Source: Patescibacteria group bacterium
GTDB taxonomy: Bacteria > Patescibacteriota > Minisyncoccia > Phycocordibacterales > Phycocordibacteraceae
NCBI GenBank assembly: GCA_038078715.1
Contig: JBBTSU010000003.1
Location: forward strand, 34,861-98,254
DNA: 63,394 nucleotides
Direction of reading: 5' to 3'
Part shown: positions 34,783 to 54,633 of the stretch, in pieces
Numbering within the stretch: position 1 is the stretch's first letter
Layout: each line of letters opens with the position of its first letter
Notes under the pieces: generated by a model
What the model saw: only the letters and a program-made list of their open reading frames with translations
What the model was told of the DNA's origin: nothing
The model's database searches: none
Translations under genes and position numbers: made by a program

Positions 34783-34858
34783 GCCGCCTTAGCTCAGTTG
34801 GTAGAGCAACACTTTTGTAAAGTGAAGGTCCCCGGTTCAAGCCCGGGAGGCGGCTCCA
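34783..34858 (+). tRNA. trnT: tRNA-Thr(UGU)
   Basis: Cloverleaf: acceptor GCCGCCT/AGGCGGC, D arm GCTC-AGTTGGTA-GAGC, anticodon loop TT-TGT-AA, T arm CCCGG-TTCAAGC-CCGGG, encoded CCA. Confidence 0.97.
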
Positions 34859-48867: not shown

Positions 48868-49494
48868 ATGACCGACGAAGGGTTAGGCAAGTTTGAACGA
48901 ATAGATGCTATAGAGAAAGACACTCGTCTTGCGCATCACCGGTTTCTTCTTTCCGAAGACCCTGCGCTGAGAGAGAAACTTCACATGCTTCAAGATTCAT
49001 TCAAACAGCTACAAGTTCAATTTCCTGAGATTATTAGTATTCAAATCCTTGGGTCACACACGAAGGGATATGCCAGTCCGAACTCGGATTTTGATCTGGG
49101 GCTCGCTCTTGATACTGCAAAGCTTGAGGCGGTCCAGCGTACGAGCGCTGAAGTCGTTGATCAGGTACAGAGCTATCTACAAAAGGTGCTTAACGTTACT
49201 AAGAAAGATATTGCGCTTGAATACTACGAATTAGGAGGATCAGATAGCTATGCACGGTATGAACCATTTCTCCTCTCACTGGGTAACGACATGCGCTCGT
49301 ATCGTGAGGCAATTATCCGGAAGTTAGAACAACAAGAAGATGGTGAGCGAGTATGGATGCACATCGTAGGGCAGCTATGGGAACGAGAGAATTTGTACTT
49401 CGGTGCGTCGCTCTTACGTGAACGAAAGAAACTATACCCACAGACACTCGCTGAGGCGCGTGCATACTTCCTCCCCGAACCAAAGGTAGGCTAG
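48868..49494 (+). CDS. Pol-beta-like nucleotidyltransferase domain protein, paralogue B
   Basis: ILGSHTKGYASPNSDFDL; LYPQTLAEARAYF. Confidence 0.75.
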   Translation: MTDEGLGKFERIDAIEKDTRLAHHRFLLSEDPALREKLHMLQDSFKQLQVQFPEIISIQILGSHTKGYASPNSDFDLGLALDTAKLEAVQRTSAEVVDQVQSYLQKVLNVTKKDIALEYYELGGSDSYARYEPFLLSLGNDMRSYREAIIRKLEQQEDGERVWMHIVGQLWERENLYFGASLLRERKKLYPQTLAEARAYFLPEPKVG

Positions 49495-51236
49495 GAGCGA
49501 TTCCTAATCTCGTCTGTAAGGCGTGCCGCAAATGCGCCCACTGCTTCTGCAGCTTCTGACTTTCCATGGTCACGGCTCTCTATAGAGACCGTACCATCCG
49601 TCGTCTCCTTTTCTCCTACCACAAGCAGATACGGAATCTTTTTCTCCTTGGCGGCACGGATTTTCTTTCCGAGGGATTCGTTTGCGGCGTCTACTTCCAC
49701 ACGAATACCTCCTGTCTTAAGAATCTTCTCAACTTCAGATGCGTACTGATTGAATTTTTCTGACACTGGGAGAATGCGGGCCTGAACAGGAGAGAGCCAG
49801 GTCGGGAAGGCGCCCGCATAGTGCTCCATGAGAATACCCATGAAGCGATCGGGTGAGCCCACAAGCGCACGATGAATCATGCTTGGTGTCTTCTTATTCC
49901 CATCCTCAGCGACATAGGAGAGTTCAAAGCGTGCAGGCTGGTTGAAGTCAAGCTGGATAGTAGAGATCTGCCACTCACGCTTGAGCGCATCCACTGCCAT
50001 GATGTCTATCTTCGGGCCATAGAAGGCTGCTTCACCAAGTGCTTCTTTGTGTGGAATCTTCTGTGATACCAGGAGGTTGCGCATAATACCCTCTGCCTTC
50101 TCCCACGTAGCATCTTCGCCAAGATACTTATCTTTCTTTGCGGGATCACGAAGGGATAGGCGCATCCAGTAATCAATCTTGTATACGGCAAGTGCTTTTT
50201 GGATTGCCTTCAAGACGTTTGAGATCTCTGACTCTATTTGGTCTTCACGGCAGAAGATGTGGCCATCGTCCTGAGAGAACGCGCGAAGTCGGGTAAGTCC
50301 TGATAGTTCACCTGGGCGCTCATCACGGTAGAGGACGGCAAAGTCTGAATAGCGAATCGGAAGGTCGCGATAACTACGGAGCTCACTGTCATAGATCTGC
50401 GTGTGCTGCGGGCAGTTCATGGGCTTCAAGAACATCTCGTCATCTACGTACTGGCTCTTCGCCTGGAGCATATCTTCCTTGTACTGGTCGTAGTGTCCGG
50501 AGATCTTAAAGAGCTCTCCTTTGTTGATGTTTGGGGTATGGACTTCACCAAAGCCAAGCTCAGTATTGAGTTCACGGGAGAACTTGATGATCTCTGAACG
50601 GATGATATTGCCTTTAGGAGTAAACAAAGGCATGCCGGAGCCGACAAGATCTGAGAAGACGAGAAGGCCCTGTTCTCGTGCGATTTTGCGGTGGTCACGC
50701 TTCTTTGCTTCCTCACGATTTGCGAGATACTCGTCTAGCTCTGCCTTGGTATCAAAGGCAAGACCATAGATACGGGTCAACATAGTGTTCTTCTCATCTC
50801 CACGCCAGTACGCACCTGCAATGCGGTCTATCTTGAAAGAATCAGGAGTTATTTCATGCGCAGGATTCTCACAGTGTCCACCACGACAGAGATCCCAATA
50901 GTCACCAGACTTGTAGAAGGAGAGCGTGCCACCATCCTTGGAGAATTCATCAATGAGCTCATGCTTGTAGGGGTTTTCTGGGTATTCCGCTTTCGCGTCC
51001 TCAGGAGAGAGTTCGTGACGATCCATGGAGGTCCAGGACGGAAGGATGCGGCGCATCTCTGTTTCAATCTTTTCGAGATCTTTTTCGTTGATTGGGGTGG
51101 GGAACTCAAAGTCAAAGTAGAAACCATCGTCAATGGCAGGACCGATGGTGCGCTTGGCATCGGGGCGAAGCTTCAGTACCGCAGCGGCAAGAAGGTGGGC
51201 GAGCGTATGGCGTTTGTGTTCTAGGTCCTGGTTCAT
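49491..51236 (-). CDS. thrS: Threonyl-tRNA synthetase
   Basis: HTLAHLLA, DLCRGGH, RDHRKI, KPMNCP.H, GLTRLRAFSQDD.H, FYGPKID, STIQLDF, HRAL.GS. Confidence 0.98.
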   Translation of the reverse strand: MNQDLEHKRHTLAHLLAAAVLKLRPDAKRTIGPAIDDGFYFDFEFPTPINEKDLEKIETEMRRILPSWTSMDRHELSPEDAKAEYPENPYKHELIDEFSKDGGTLSFYKSGDYWDLCRGGHCENPAHEITPDSFKIDRIAGAYWRGDEKNTMLTRIYGLAFDTKAELDEYLANREEAKKRDHRKIAREQGLLVFSDLVGSGMPLFTPKGNIIRSEIIKFSRELNTELGFGEVHTPNINKGELFKISGHYDQYKEDMLQAKSQYVDDEMFLKPMNCPQHTQIYDSELRSYRDLPIRYSDFAVLYRDERPGELSGLTRLRAFSQDDGHIFCREDQIESEISNVLKAIQKALAVYKIDYWMRLSLRDPAKKDKYLGEDATWEKAEGIMRNLLVSQKIPHKEALGEAAFYGPKIDIMAVDALKREWQISTIQLDFNQPARFELSYVAEDGNKKTPSMIHRALVGSPDRFMGILMEHYAGAFPTWLSPVQARILPVSEKFNQYASEVEKILKTGGIRVEVDAANESLGKKIRAAKEKKIPYLLVVGEKETTDGTVSIESRDHGKSEAAEAVGAFAARLTDEIRNRS

Positions 51237-51263
51237 AGTGTGTGTAAGTATACCGTTTGAAAT

Positions 51264-51288
51264 AAAAAACCCCGCAGGTGGCGGGGGT
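51264..51288 (-). terminator. Attenuator terminator in the thrS leader
   Basis: Minus strand: CCCCGC-cacct-GCGGGG-TTTTTT. Confidence 0.85.
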
Positions 51289-51323
51289 AATAGTGTGTGA
51301 GGCTAGGACCACCGCCATGGGCG

Positions 51324-51362
51324 CTACGAGGTAGTAGTGGTGGTCGTGGTCACGAATACCAT
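51324..51362 (-). promoter_or_regulatory. Thr-rich leader peptide MVFVTTTTTTTS (attenuator uORF of thrS)
   Basis: ATG GTA TTC GTG ACC ACG ACC ACC ACT ACT ACC TCG TAG; -10 TATACT at 51370-51375 (minus strand). Confidence 0.85.
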
Positions 51363-51389
51363 AGGGAGAAGTATAGGACGCCCCATTAC

Positions 51390-54300
51390 TTATGCAAGTG
51401 CCTTGAGGTTATCCACGGCAAGCGTGGTCTCCCCGTTTCTAATAGATACCTTGGCCTTGAGAAGGACGCAGGAACCCTCTACCAGTGCAGGATTCTGTTC
51501 CTTATAGAGCTTTGGGAAGACTACTCCTTCAATGGAATCAGTCTTGTCCTCAAAGCGCACAAAGGACATCTTCTCTCCGTTTTTTGTAAGAAGAGTACGG
51601 ACACTTGCAACAAGCGCAGGGAGGATAACGGGAAGATTCTGCTGGGGCTCTTCCTTGATCTTCCCGATTGTCATGGTGGCTTTACTCATCACCGTACCGT
51701 GCGAATCAAGCGGATGTCCGGAGATATAAATACCAAGGAGCTCCTTTTCCCATCTGAGCTTGTCGCGAAGGGTGGTCTTAAGATCACTCTCCGGAAGAAT
51801 CAAGCTCGGTGCCACAGAGGCAAAGAGAGAGTCCTGGGTGGTGGGGGCGGTCGCGTCTCGGTGGAAGGTAAGAAGTGTTTCAATGTAAGTAAGAAGATGT
51901 GCACGCTCACCAAAACGATCAAGCGCACCACACTTAATGAGTGACTCAAGTGACTTTCGATTTAGATTTCTGTTCCCAATTCGACAAAGGAAATCAGAAA
52001 GGGAAGCGAAAGGTTCCGCCTTTTCGCGCTCAACGATGATGGCTTCTGAGATTCCTTCTCCGAAGTTCTTTATGGAAGAAAGTCCGAAACGGATAGTATT
52101 TTTGTTCTCACCGGCCACCGTAAACACAGAGCGGGATTCGTTCACGTCAGGCGGAAGCACAGGAACTTTGAGTCGCTCACATTCGGCGACCATGACCGCA
52201 ATCTGATCTACGTTTCCAGAGTCGGCGGTCAGTACGGCGGCCATGTACTCCACGGGGTAGTGAGCCTTCATGTACGCAGTCTGGTACGCCACTTTTCCGT
52301 AGGATGCGGCATGTGCTTTGTTGAATCCGTAGGCAGCGAACGGCTCAATCAACTTCCAGAGTGCTTCAGCGTTCGATTTAGAAAGCTTTGCATGATCCAT
52401 GAAGCCTGCGATGAGCTTTTCTTTCTGTGCCTCCATCTGTTCTGGGATCTTCTTACCCATAGCCTTACGAAGGGCGTCTGCCTCAAGCCATGAGTAGCCA
52501 CCAAGGCGCACCGCAATCAAAAGCACATCGTCCTGATATGTCACCACGCCATAGGAACGATCTAGGATCTCTTCTAGGCGAGGGTCAAGATACTTCACCA
52601 GCTTCGGATTTCGCTTTCGTTCAATGTAGGAAGGGATAGATTCAAGCGGACCTGGGCGATACAAGGCCACCATGGCGTTAATGTCGTGGATGGTGGTAGG
52701 ACGGAGCTCCTTTAAGTATCGGGTCATACCACTTCCTGCAAGCTGGAAGAGCCCTTCGGTTTCTCCACGCGCAAGCATCGCAAAGGTCTCTGCGTCATCA
52801 ATAGGAATCTTCTCAATATCAATCCAGGTATCGCGCGTGTCTTTTACGCGCTCCACGGAGTCAGCGAGAATGGCGAGGTTTTTAATACCGAGGAAGTCAA
52901 ACTTGAGAAGTCCCACACCACCATATTCATCAGTGATGGAGTACATGTCGTACTGGGTGATGAGCGCGCCATTCTCGTCTTCACTCTTCGGATCGTACTG
53001 AAGCGGTGCCCACTCAATGAGCGGGGAAGGAGCGATCACCACGCCGGCCGCGTGCACACCTACGTGACGCACACAGCCTTCAATGCGCTTAGCCAGATCT
53101 ATTACTTCGCGCACGTCATCATCCTCGTCGTAGAGTTTCTTTAGATCCTCCTCAAGCGTCATAGCGCGGTCAATGGTCATGGGAAACCCTTGTGAGCCGA
53201 TAGGAATGAGTTTGGCGATACGGTCTCCGGTGCCATAGGAATGTCCAAGGGCACGTGCGACATCGCGCACGGCGGCACGAGCAAGCATGGTACCGAAGGT
53301 ACCGATCTGTGCGACACGATCTTCACCGTACTTACGCTTTGCATACGCGATCACTTCACCACGCCGATTATCAGCAAAGTCCATATCAATATCCGGTGCT
53401 TTCGGACGCTCAGGGTTCAAGAAGCGTTCAAAGGGAAGTTTGTAGAAAATAGGATCCACGTTCGTCACACCGGTGAGGTAAGAAACGAGGGATCCTCCTG
53501 CAGAACCACGAGTGGTGGTGAGGATGCCTTCCTTACGCGCAAAGGTAAGGAGGTCGGAGACAATGAGGAAATACGGAGCAAAGCCTTTGTCCTTAATGAC
53601 TTGTAACTCATACTCTATGCGCTCTTCTACTTCCTTCGCCTTTTCCATTCCACGCATAGAAAGGCCGGCATAGGCACGATCTTTCAATTCTTCGTCGTGG
53701 GTCTTACCGCTTTCCACTTTAAACTCAGGGAACACCCACTCGCCAAGTGTGAACGAGAGGTTGCAGCGTTCTGCAATCTCACCACTGCGATCTACCGCAT
53801 CTTCCATGCCCGTAAACCACTTCCGCATATCCTTCTCGGAGGTGAAGGAGAAGTCTTCGTCTTCGTTAAATCCTTTCTCCCCATGCTGGATGCGACGAAG
53901 GACCGCACAGGCTTCACGATCTTCTGGTGCAAGAAAGTACACATCGTGCTGGGCAACGAGTGGCACACCCGAAGACTTTGAAAGAGTGATCAGTGCCTCC
54001 ATGCGTTTCTCGTGCCCCTCTACTTTCGGGTGATGGGTAATCTCAAGAAACACATTATCTTTCCCAAAAGTGCTCACGTATTCCTCTAGAAGAGCAGCCG
54101 CAGCTTTAAGATCTCCTGCTGCAACCGCTTGCACGACTTCTCCAGAGAAAGAAGGGATGAGGGCGATGACTCCTTCTTTGTGTTCGCGAAGTAACTCCTT
54201 ATCCATCCTCGGCCTCTCATTCAATCCTTCGGTGAACGACTTCGTGACAAGTGCAAGAAGGTTTTTGTATCCTTTTTCATTTTCTGCAAGAAGCACGAGA

Positions 54301-54557
54301 CGCGCGCGTTTCTCGTCACGATTCTTTTCGTGTCGTGAACGTGGTGCGAGATACGCATCCACTCCAAGAATTGGTTTGATGCCCGCCTTCATAGCGGATT
54401 TATAGAAATCAATGGCGCCATGAAGGTTCCCGGCGTCGGTAAGGGCGACTGCCGGCATCCCTGCTTTCTTTGCAGCCTCTACCAGCTCATCTGCCTTCGG
54501 GAGTGCCTGAAGGAAGGAATAGTGGCTATGGGTATGGAGGTGCACAAACTTGCTCAT
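51390..54557 (-). CDS. dnaE: DNA polymerase III alpha subunit
   Basis: HLHTHSHYS, RGSAGGSL, FERFLNPER..PDIDMDF, KFDFLG, FNKAHA; start at ATG 54557. Confidence 0.98.
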   Translation of the reverse strand: MSKFVHLHTHSHYSFLQALPKADELVEAAKKAGMPAVALTDAGNLHGAIDFYKSAMKAGIKPILGVDAYLAPRSRHEKNRDEKRARLVLLAENEKGYKNLLALVTKSFTEGLNERPRMDKELLREHKEGVIALIPSFSGEVVQAVAAGDLKAAAALLEEYVSTFGKDNVFLEITHHPKVEGHEKRMEALITLSKSSGVPLVAQHDVYFLAPEDREACAVLRRIQHGEKGFNEDEDFSFTSEKDMRKWFTGMEDAVDRSGEIAERCNLSFTLGEWVFPEFKVESGKTHDEELKDRAYAGLSMRGMEKAKEVEERIEYELQVIKDKGFAPYFLIVSDLLTFARKEGILTTTRGSAGGSLVSYLTGVTNVDPIFYKLPFERFLNPERPKAPDIDMDFADNRRGEVIAYAKRKYGEDRVAQIGTFGTMLARAAVRDVARALGHSYGTGDRIAKLIPIGSQGFPMTIDRAMTLEEDLKKLYDEDDDVREVIDLAKRIEGCVRHVGVHAAGVVIAPSPLIEWAPLQYDPKSEDENGALITQYDMYSITDEYGGVGLLKFDFLGIKNLAILADSVERVKDTRDTWIDIEKIPIDDAETFAMLARGETEGLFQLAGSGMTRYLKELRPTTIHDINAMVALYRPGPLESIPSYIERKRNPKLVKYLDPRLEEILDRSYGVVTYQDDVLLIAVRLGGYSWLEADALRKAMGKKIPEQMEAQKEKLIAGFMDHAKLSKSNAEALWKLIEPFAAYGFNKAHAASYGKVAYQTAYMKAHYPVEYMAAVLTADSGNVDQIAVMVAECERLKVPVLPPDVNESRSVFTVAGENKNTIRFGLSSIKNFGEGISEAIIVEREKAEPFASLSDFLCRIGNRNLNRKSLESLIKCGALDRFGERAHLLTYIETLLTFHRDATAPTTQDSLFASVAPSLILPESDLKTTLRDKLRWEKELLGIYISGHPLDSHGTVMSKATMTIGKIKEEPQQNLPVILPALVASVRTLLTKNGEKMSFVRFEDKTDSIEGVVFPKLYKEQNPALVEGSCVLLKAKVSIRNGETTLAVDNLKALA

Positions 54558-54633
54558 AGACACAGAATAGCAAGCCAACGAGGCATGCGCCTAATGTTGG
54601 TATACTGTCCCTATATTCATATCTTCATAGACT

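Follow-up and report, generated by a model that had tools for sequence, protein, structure and literature searches.

Organization of the dnaE–thrS intergenic region

The DNA analysed here, referred to throughout as the window, is a stretch of 63 394 nt from a Patescibacteria group bacterium of the family Phycocordibacteraceae (assembly GCA_038078715.1, contig JBBTSU010000003.1, positions 34 861 to 98 254), and the element in question is a candidate threonine attenuator located directly upstream of thrS, the gene for threonyl-tRNA synthetase (ThrRS). The sequence and the list of open reading frames (ORFs) place thrS and its upstream neighbour dnaE on the minus strand, separated by a spacer of 153 nt. 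Within this spacer lie a putative promoter (P1), a short upstream ORF (uORF) with seven consecutive Thr codons, an intrinsic terminator and a second putative promoter (P2), together with three sequence segments able to form alternative pairings. The features, in window coordinates, are as follows.

51390–54578, minus strand: dnaE (1062 aa, DNA polymerase III alpha), the upstream neighbour in the same orientation, with its TAA at 51392–51390; from the ORF list
51392–51397, minus strand: −35-like element of P1, TTGCAT, which overlaps the dnaE stop codon and is separated from the −10 box by 16 nt; from the sequence
51370–51375, minus strand: −10 box of P1, TATACT, 7 nt (TCTCCCT, 51369–51363) before the uORF ATG; invariant in alignment A1
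51324–51362, minus strand: leader ORF MVFVTTTTTTTS, 12 codons plus TAG, with its ATG at 51362 and the TAG at 51326–51324
51330–51350, minus strand: segment 1, the seven Thr codons (ACC ACG ACC ACC ACT ACT ACC), the proposed stalling site
51307–51317, minus strand: segment 2, TGGCGGTGGTC, beginning 7 nt (CGCCCAT) past the UAG and complementary to segments 1 and 3
51280–51288, minus strand: segment 3, ACCCCCGCC, the terminator 5′ arm with flanking bases
51264–51286, minus strand: intrinsic terminator CCCCGC-CACCT-GCGGGG (pairing 3:4) plus U6, with the hairpin at 51286–51270 and T6 at 51269–51264; from a terminator scan
51247–51252, minus strand: −10 box of P2, TATACT (within GGTATACT), downstream of the terminator and separated from the thrS ATG by 10 nt
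49491–51236, minus strand: thrS (threonyl-tRNA synthetase, 581 aa), with Pfam matches to tRNA-synt_2b (2e-44), HGTP_anticodon (5e-22) and tRNA_SAD (2.5e-6)

The coordinates and sequences given in a preliminary description of the window were all confirmed to the base when re-read on the minus strand. The uORF reads ATG GTA TTC GTG ACC ACG ACC ACC ACT ACT ACC TCG TAG and ends 87 nt before thrS, whilst the U-tract ends 27 nt before the thrS ATG (51236). The TTGCAT of P1 matches the consensus at three of six positions and aligns with the TTGACA of relatives, its TTG being invariant in alignment A1. The product of thrS is the sole strong ThrS match in the genome.

The Thr7 leader is unique in the genome and conserved in close relatives

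Across all six frames of the 658 598 bp genome, the Thr7 run is the only one of at least six Thr residues, and it directly precedes thrS. Together with the antisense Val7 it represents the only homopolymeric run of at least six residues outside coding sequence in the whole genome; furthermore, a scan of intergenic ORFs found no comparable short ORFs or cognate-codon leaders elsewhere in it. When compared with dinucleotide shuffles the leader RNA folded with a z score of −2.69, and an equally good fold was obtained for 1 of 200 shuffles.

The closest relative sampled (L111, 96 % ThrS identity) carries an identical leader peptide, MVFVTTTTTTTS. With increasing distance the peptide changes outside its Thr run, to MILTTTTTTH at 81 % ThrS identity (L112 and L057), to MILTTTTTTR (L115) and MILTTTTTAR (L117 and L093) at 76 % and to MAFVTTTTTTP at 74 % (L113). 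In alignment A1 the close-clade leaders share a second TATACT 8–10 nt before thrS and a terminator of the form CCCC(C)GC/GCGGGG(G), and seven of the eight leaders aligned have an unchanged GGCGGTGGTC in segment 2. Three relatives (L112, L115 and L117) share the module from P1 to thrS. A search of 222 genomes of the genus with the pattern of segment 2 plus terminator matched seven, with one copy each and always before thrS, whilst the reversed control pattern gave no match in the same genomes. A lack of conservation in relatives, which the preliminary description would have counted against its reading, was not seen: the leader is kept in a clade extending to 74–81 % ThrS identity, and the design recurs in other Patescibacteria (see below).

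As for gene order, dnaE lies directly upstream in the seventh genome matched (L193) too, and the dnaE–thrS synteny is also present in L007, L029 and L111. Upstream of the leader in L057 and L093 lies a 278-aa ORF transcribed divergently, with dnaE ending 1 kb away. As this neighbour is divergent, the terminator in these two loci would end only the P1 transcript, and reading the hairpin as just a dnaE terminator fails as a general explanation. Relatives that lack the leader peptide (for instance L004–L007, L011 and L114) show a default layout of upstream gene, terminator, −10 box, ∼9 nt and thrS ATG. No Thr-run uORF was found in the first 29 thrS loci examined from the genus and order, a sample that missed the subclade of the window, which was found by later scans of metagenomes and named genomes. 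The taxon labels of some of the third-party annotation metagenome-assembled genomes among the relatives ('Saccharibacteria', 'Gammaproteobacteria') are evidently unreliable.

Leaderless gene starts in the genome

The spacing between P1 and the uORF was compared with gene starts throughout the genome. Among the 191 genes preceded by a gap of 50 nt or more, 90 have a TAnnnT motif starting at −15 to −11, and the spacing seen most often between box and ATG is 6 nt. TAnnnT (mostly [G]GTATACT) ends 6–10 nt before the ATG in approximately half of the genes that have a gap upstream; genes with gaps of <20 nt frequently have it too. Motifs resembling a Shine–Dalgarno (SD) sequence showed no enrichment upstream of genes genome-wide. 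A −10 box (TATACT, often GGTATACT) ending 6–10 nt upstream of the ATG is the normal gene start of this genome, and the spacings of both the uORF (7 nt) and thrS (10 nt) match it. Additionally, six relatives (L112, L113, L115, L117, L151 and L193) possess a complete TTGACA-17-TATACT promoter 6–7 nt upstream of the uORF ATG. Taken with the genome-wide geometry and the lack of SD enrichment, these promoters bear out the earlier proposal that the uORF is leaderless, with translation predicted to begin at or next to the 5′ end of the P1 transcript.

A further in-frame ATG is present at 51384–51386, 3 nt past the dnaE stop codon, and would lengthen the leader to 20 aa (MGRPILLPMVFVTTTTTTTS). This longer, 20-codon uORF starting at 51386 was rejected as the conserved start, as the ATG is missing in L111; it could let ribosomes that finish dnaE reinitiate, but for the same reason is probably incidental.

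Mutually exclusive pairings in the leader RNA

Segment 2 is complementary both to the Thr codons and to the terminator. Against GACCACCACUA within the codons it forms 10 of 11 possible pairs, with one G-U pair and one A·C mismatch, and against ACCCCCGCC it forms 8 of 9 (the antiterminator); these counts, first given in the preliminary description, were correct when checked by hand. In the window, pairing 1:2 has a predicted energy of −19.0 kcal/mol (p = 0.0003 versus shuffles) and pairing 2:3 one of −9.9 kcal/mol (p = 0.03). Covariation within the close clade is too sparse to be informative, and shuffle tests at the level of the design were used across lineages instead. For 11 independent lineages, each contributing a single representative, the spacer following the uORF stop codon was complementary beyond its own shuffles to the zone of Thr codons (Fisher p = 4e-12) and likewise to the 5′ arm of the terminator (Fisher p = 2e-12). 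Segment 2 starts 0–10 nt past the uORF stop codon in all lineages compared. For the eight aligned leaders of the close clade, RNAalifold returned pairing 1:2 and the terminator, the latter being kept in all eight.

Across lineages, the Thr codons are free at their third position (ACA, ACC, ACG or ACT) whilst AC is fixed, and segment 2 changes alongside; for example, ACAACAACAACU pairs with GUUGUUGU in L178, and ACCACGACGACG pairs with CGUGGUG in L160. This third-position freedom with a fixed AC reads as the signature of a constraint acting at the level of codons.

Folding of the window leader was carried out both free and with a ribosome footprint masked. In the free RNA, RNAfold predicts one long hairpin, in which GGCGGUGGU pairs with ACCCCCGCC (pairing 2:3) and the last Thr, Ser and stop codons pair with CUGCGGGGU. 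With a footprint at the stop codon the terminator is the sole remaining structure, and with a footprint at the last Thr codon pairing 2:3 forms and the terminator is absent. Folds of four other leaders under the same kind of constraint (L057, L074, L107 and L108) switch similarly. The 1:2/2:3/3:4 arrangement put forward in the preliminary description therefore stands in so far as the constrained folds switch and both complementarities exceed those of shuffled sequences; given that the free minimum free energy (MFE) structure is a long hairpin, the simple four-segment picture of the window leader appears slightly idealised. Sequence and folding provide the features by which this class of attenuator is recognised, namely a uORF of Thr codons, an intrinsic terminator, mutually exclusive 1:2 and 2:3 pairings and a stop codon close to segment 2.

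Recurrence of Thr leaders upstream of thrS in distant Patescibacteria

In distant Patescibacteria (44–60 % ThrS identity) we found Thr-cluster leaders of unrelated sequence but like design before thrS. Each peptide below is followed directly by a stop codon.

L074: leader MSILSTTTTTSE, with segment 2 and terminator GGGAGGGTGTTGTG...CACAACAGCCTCCC-cgaac-GGGAGG-U6
L102: leader MKLYKYFTTTTAS
L107: leader MKLNHCVVATTTIS
L108: leader ...LLTITTTTCVS
L151: leader MQLVTTTTTAF
L155: leader MKLNLNNQTTTTSS
L160: leader MVTRVCTTTTTTENR
L163 and L047: leaders MEIVRCITTTKTTA and MEKSRCIITTKSTA, respectively
L178: leader MFNSIITTTTTFS
L161 and L164: leaders MKIRNINSTTATDS and MKIQNINSTTATGS, respectively
L184: leader MEKQQITTITTTTQPFVGRCVSG
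L061, ∼1375–2472: Thr9 leader and terminator heading a gene of the DIT1_PvcA family (Pfam 5e-49), followed by thrS

The frequency of such arrangements was assessed in a census of 152 non-identical thrS upstream regions, in which a leader was defined as a short ORF starting with ATG, containing at least three of one residue within five codons and accompanied by a terminator. Thr leaders were found 21 times and Leu leaders four times, with every other amino acid reaching no more than two. All told, the Thr design is seen in about 20 related lineages. When both strands of 1.04 Mb of loci were searched for short ORFs with a homopolymeric run of at least four residues and a terminator, nine were found for Thr and between zero and four for each of the other amino acids. 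Six of these nine Thr-run ORFs fall within the 4.3 % of the sequence that lies upstream of thrS, and the other three head operons ending in thrS. Four candidates are doubtful (L088, L150, L165 and L084), one of which (L084) was nonetheless scored as a leader in the census, in the tree and in the counts for P2.

An apparent Tyr4 uORF before thrS in L047 and L048 was rejected, as it is an out-of-frame overlap within the Thr leader and the promoter-proximal ATG selects the Thr frame. Located ∼90 nt before thrS, the out-of-frame ORF encodes MYYYYQKHRMRRGVV (L047) or MHYYYQNNRMIGGVV (L163) and thereby mimics a Tyr leader. The leader of L163, MEIVRCITTTKTTA, sits 7 nt after TTGACA-17-TAGAAT, and the MEKSRCIITTKSTA obtained from the promoter-proximal ATG of L047 resembles it.

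On a tree of 148 distinct ThrS sequences there are 22 leader loci, 14 loci with a T-box core and 112 loci with neither. Six sequences, all with leaders, make up the clade that contains the window, and L113 branches beside it. The other leaders are scattered over the tree, which requires at least 13 changes, although the labels are still more clustered than shuffled ones. This scatter, together with the dissimilarity of the leader sequences, points to repeated gain and loss.

Several side observations concern these distant loci. In L050 (∼320–2001), a Thr4 leader with a terminator heads a unit of a 245-aa unknown protein, a creatininase-family protein (1e-54) and thrS. In L161 (1288–1364) and L164 (170–246), the A of the encoded CCA of tRNA-Val(GAC) is also the A of the uORF ATG, and in L178 (27–101) tRNA-Asp ends 3 nt before the uORF ATG; the 5′-AUG of the leader mRNA in these three loci might be made by processing of the tRNA 3′ end rather than by a promoter. 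In L074, L102, L107, L108, L161 and L178, segment 2 and the terminator arms consist of words resembling SD and anti-SD sequences (GGGAGG and CCUCCC), placed right after the uORF stop codon. The organisms concerned otherwise show little use of SD sequences.

T-box-like leaders and other RNA families

Five of the first 29 thrS loci examined carry a T-box-like leader, with GGTGGAACCGCGG and an ACC specifier, that matches the Rfam T-box model at E-values of 4e-4 to 4e-3. In all, leaders of this kind were noted upstream of thrS in L008, L016, L024, L025, L028, L032, L041, L044, L053, L068, L119, L137 and L140–L143. These leaders, which belong to sister lineages of the same genus and order, have a stem I, an ACC specifier and the core GGTGG[AT]ACC[GA]CG; of the 148 distinct loci on the ThrS tree, 14 have this core before thrS. 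As they score 30–33 bits, compared with a Rfam gathering score of 93 for the T-box, patescibacterial T-boxes may be missed by standard annotation. The position of these elements is equivalent to that of the Thr leader, such that sensing of tRNA-Thr charging at thrS appears to have been selected for.

The T-box core is absent from the leader of the window. Moreover, neither the Thr leader family (RF00506) nor the T-box (RF00230) was matched in a Rfam search of positions 50900–51700 at E ≤ 10 or of the whole window at the gathering score, which returned chance matches and tRNA only. As regards a thrS operator of the E. coli type, which mimics the anticodon arm of tRNA-Thr and overlaps the ribosome-binding site, inspection showed no SD sequence before thrS, and the sole hairpin adjacent to the start is the terminator, with the loop CACCU.

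A second putative promoter downstream of the terminator

The preliminary description had suggested that the second TATACT might allow basal expression, and this fits with its distribution: 17 of the 22 leader loci (77 %), 75 of the 112 loci with neither element (67 %) and 4 of the 14 T-box loci (29 %) have a −10 box that ends 5–12 nt before the thrS ATG. Its retention in most leader loci indicates that the leader cassette is followed by a leaderless thrS promoter of the usual kind, and P2 is a probable basal promoter that acts independently of the attenuator. The most economical model is probably additive, with basal mRNA from P2 supplemented by P1 readthrough that is induced by Thr limitation.

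Proposed mechanism and alternatives

We consider it likely, and hold with good confidence, that the dnaE–thrS spacer functions as a ribosome-mediated transcription attenuator, which would sense charged tRNA-Thr and control readthrough into thrS. The analysis shows the anatomy of the spacer, its statistical rarity, the alternative pairings and the recurrence of these before thrS across many lineages; from the sequence we infer the start sites of P1 and P2, translation of the uORF, termination at the U-tract, Thr-dependent readthrough and the size of its effect relative to P2. In the proposed mechanism, P1 would start transcription at or next to the AUG of the 12-codon leaderless ORF with its seven Thr codons. 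When Thr-tRNA is plentiful, the ribosome would reach the UAG, its footprint would cover segment 2, and the 3:4 terminator would halt transcription 27 nt short of thrS. Under scarcity of Thr-tRNA, the ribosome would stall in the Thr run and mask segment 1, so that segment 2 would pair with segment 3, the terminator would not form, and RNA polymerase would enter thrS. If the uORF is not translated, pairing 1:2 or the long hairpin should form, and termination would be expected. P2, below the terminator, would supply basal thrS mRNA, to which the attenuator would add inducible transcripts. In the window, the same terminator should also end dnaE transcription, and any readthrough from dnaE would fall under the control of the attenuator and contribute to thrS mRNA.

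A number of observations weigh against this mechanism. The promoter scan of the window did not call P1, which has a weak −35 element (TTGCAT) and a 16-nt spacer. P2 lies below the terminator and may let much or most thrS mRNA escape the attenuator; it is also about as frequent in leader loci as in unregulated loci, unlike in T-box loci. The mRNAs made by readthrough would present thrS with an internal, SD-less AUG in a genome that favours leaderless starts, and their translatability is assumed from that of the T-box-led thrS mRNAs of relatives. With regard to structure, the MFE fold of the untranslated window leader already holds pairing 2:3, with segment 4 sequestered in the last Thr, Ser and stop codons, and still abuts the U-tract. 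With the footprint mask at the second Thr codon the long hairpin persists, and only stalls at later Thr codons are therefore predicted to relieve termination. In L093 a stronger terminator stays the MFE structure even under the mask of a stalled ribosome. Finally, complementarity 2:3 is modest within the close clade (p = 0.03–0.2), and few compensatory changes are seen among these close relatives, which form a shallow clade.

Three other explanations were weighed. The spacer could be an ordinary gene boundary, in which the hairpin and U6 serve as the dnaE terminator, thrS is transcribed from P2 only and the Thr7 ORF reflects chance or low complexity. Leader-free relatives have exactly such a layout, and P2 is present and matches the promoter type of the genome. 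However, the sole run of at least six Thr in the genome falls before thrS, the module is kept in seven genomes of the genus (with the divergent neighbour in L057 and L093 needing no terminator), Thr leaders are in excess in the census (21 versus ≤ 4) and segment 2 has its dual complementarity (Fisher p ∼1e-12). On these comparative grounds an ordinary boundary appears very unlikely, to the point of being scarcely credible. Alternatively, the switch might be made of RNA only, with an untranslated repeat of ACC/ACN binding either the anticodons of tRNA-Thr, in the manner of a T-box, or ThrRS, in the manner of the E. coli operator, and so setting pairing 1:2 against 2:3. In its favour, the best-supported helix is 1:2, the anticodons of tRNA-Thr necessarily complement Thr codons, T-box-like leaders exist in sister lineages, and translation of the uORF is itself a prediction. 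On the other hand, the Thr cluster is always in frame with an ATG that either adjoins the 3′ end of a tRNA or follows a −10 box at a distance of 6–7 nt (in three distant lineages, of 12 nt). Moreover, in the close clade the stop codon follows 0–3 codons after the Thr run and segment 2 a further 0–10 nt on, which is the geometry of a ribosome footprint; variation has a period of three and is confined to third positions; and the window matches neither the T-box nor any other RNA family in Rfam. We thus give an RNA-only switch a slim chance at best.

It is also conceivable that the leader has a different output, either because P1 readthrough occludes P2, or because a trans-acting role falls to the terminated leader RNA of ∼100 nt or to the Thr-rich peptide, with a net effect on ThrRS under Thr limitation that could be neutral or negative. 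Attenuator RNAs and peptides acting in trans have been documented for Sinorhizobium rnTrpL/peTrpL (PMC6614838, PMC7298713), P2 is retained in 77 % of leader loci, and the SD-less internal AUG of thrS might be translated poorly in a genome that prefers leaderless mRNAs. In disagreement with this, thrS in T-box-led mRNAs of the clade likewise starts internally and without an SD sequence, and most of these loci lack P2, which argues that such leadered mRNAs must be translatable in this group. Furthermore, the leaders of L061 and L050 head multi-gene units ending in thrS, with no promoter required in between, and the peptide sequences are not conserved outside the Thr run. Induction of aminoacyl-tRNA synthetases (aaRSs) at low charging is moreover the rule for control of the T-box and pheST type. 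As such, a different output is improbable, with a small but appreciable probability left to it, and attenuation that raises thrS expression when Thr-tRNA is scarce remains the explanation we favour.

tRNA-Thr genes and a broader proposal

Using Aragorn we identified 40 tRNAs in the genome, including two tRNA-Thr genes with the anticodons CGU and UGU (C2:32284–32357 and C3:69643–69718, the latter corresponding to window positions 34783–34855). No tRNA-Thr(GGU) was found by Aragorn in the 17-contig assembly, whilst ACC and ACU together account for 56 % of Thr codons genome-wide and for six of the seven in the leader. Either the assembly lacks a tRNA gene or wobble pairing serves to read ACY codons, and such wobble reading could heighten the sensitivity of the leader. 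A run of ∼100 N at C3:34759–34861, which may be a scaffold gap, adjoins the start of the window.

A broader proposal can be advanced tentatively, as something that may well not hold in full. Patescibacteria, unable to make threonine, would have invented leaderless Thr attenuators on at least 10 separate occasions in the ThrS tree and interchanged them with T-boxes. Each would be an add-on booster cassette placed upstream of an intact promoter, often co-opting the terminator of the preceding gene (dnaE in the window), with a tRNA-processed 5′-AUG in L161, L164 and L178. In the genome of the window, ACC and ACU codons of the leader may be read by wobble only, which would make the sensor sharper.

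Relation to known regulatory systems

In enterobacteria, attenuation controls the thr biosynthetic operons and pheST; thrS is subject to translational autorepression in E. coli and to a T-box in Bacillus. Like the enterobacterial leaders trpL, hisL, leuL, thrL (RF00506) and pheM, the thrS leader of the window has tandem cognate codons, a segment 2 past the stop codon, mutually exclusive 1:2, 2:3 and 3:4 pairings and a terminator with a U-tract, and pheM, as the leader of pheST, sets a precedent for an aaRS target. Unlike them, however, it shows no similarity to RF00506 in sequence or structure (no Rfam match), its uORF is predicted to be leaderless rather than SD-led, its target is thrS and not Thr biosynthesis, and it resides in a 658-kb genome. 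Also unlike the enterobacterial leaders, it has a second promoter between the terminator and the gene, and its terminator in the window would also serve the upstream dnaE. With the thrS T-box of the Bacillus type (RF00230) it would share the target gene, the tRNA-Thr charging signal and a terminator/antiterminator output; the sensor, however, would be a translating ribosome and not direct binding of the tRNA, and T-box loci mostly lack P2 (29 versus 77 %). Judged by its sequence, the locus would work like the Thr leader RF00506, yet is a homologue neither of that family nor of the T-box.

Leaderless leader peptides upstream of aaRS genes have been predicted in other phyla. In Deinococcus deserti, transcription-start data led to the prediction of 14 such peptides, for example before cysS (PMC4007540), and in Streptomyces lividans leaderless alaL, trpL2 and leuL2 have been proposed together with a thrL before thrS (PMC8079986). 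The contrast drawn in the preliminary description, in which thrS is otherwise governed by autorepression or a T-box, was hence too narrow, since the Streptomyces thrL had already been proposed (PMC8079986). As in these organisms, transcription in the window is predicted to start at the AUG of a small ORF rich in cognate codons upstream of an aaRS gene, with thrL–thrS being one such pair. The Streptomyces thrL, however, contains two Thr only and, according to its authors, no clear Rho-independent terminator (PMC8079986), whilst the patescibacterial leaders have 4–9 Thr codons in a row and a canonical terminator, show explicit antiterminator complementarity, are broadly supported by comparison among genomes and belong to a different phylum. 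Conversely, the Deinococcus and Streptomyces cases rest on data for transcription start sites, and the present locus is known from sequence alone.

The closest evolutionary parallel is found in bacilli, where His leader peptides before the hisS paralogues hisZ and hisS* replace T-boxes and repeated de novo emergence has been suggested (Naville and Gautheret 2010, PMC2965389). There too, a leader peptide stands in place of a T-box before a gene of an aaRS family within one clade; the amino acid and phylum differ from those of the present case, and the short ORFs of bacilli are SD-led. The repeated gain and loss that we propose for the Thr leaders matches the suggestion made by those authors for other leader peptides (PMC2965389).

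No description of leader-peptide attenuation in Patescibacteria was found in the literature, as covered by open-access papers. The mechanism class itself is known; this new member combines a leaderless uORF with a bypass promoter and a terminator co-opted from the upstream gene, and comes from a phylum for which next to no regulation of this kind has been described. To our knowledge, Patescibacteria, also termed the Candidate Phyla Radiation, are usually described as having minimal regulation, with few cis-regulatory RNAs reported. Gene callers miss ORFs as short as these, and the recipe used in the census (a cluster of cognate codons plus a terminator before an aaRS gene) is reusable. Within one genus, thrS is found with a leader peptide, a T-box-like element or neither, which makes it a compact system for regulatory turnover and for the birth of attenuators from existing terminators. 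If the mechanism proposed here is true, a textbook mechanism of ribosome stalling has been adapted to leaderless translation, and ultra-small cells that are auxotrophic for amino acids would monitor the charging of tRNA-Thr and adjust their supply of ThrRS.

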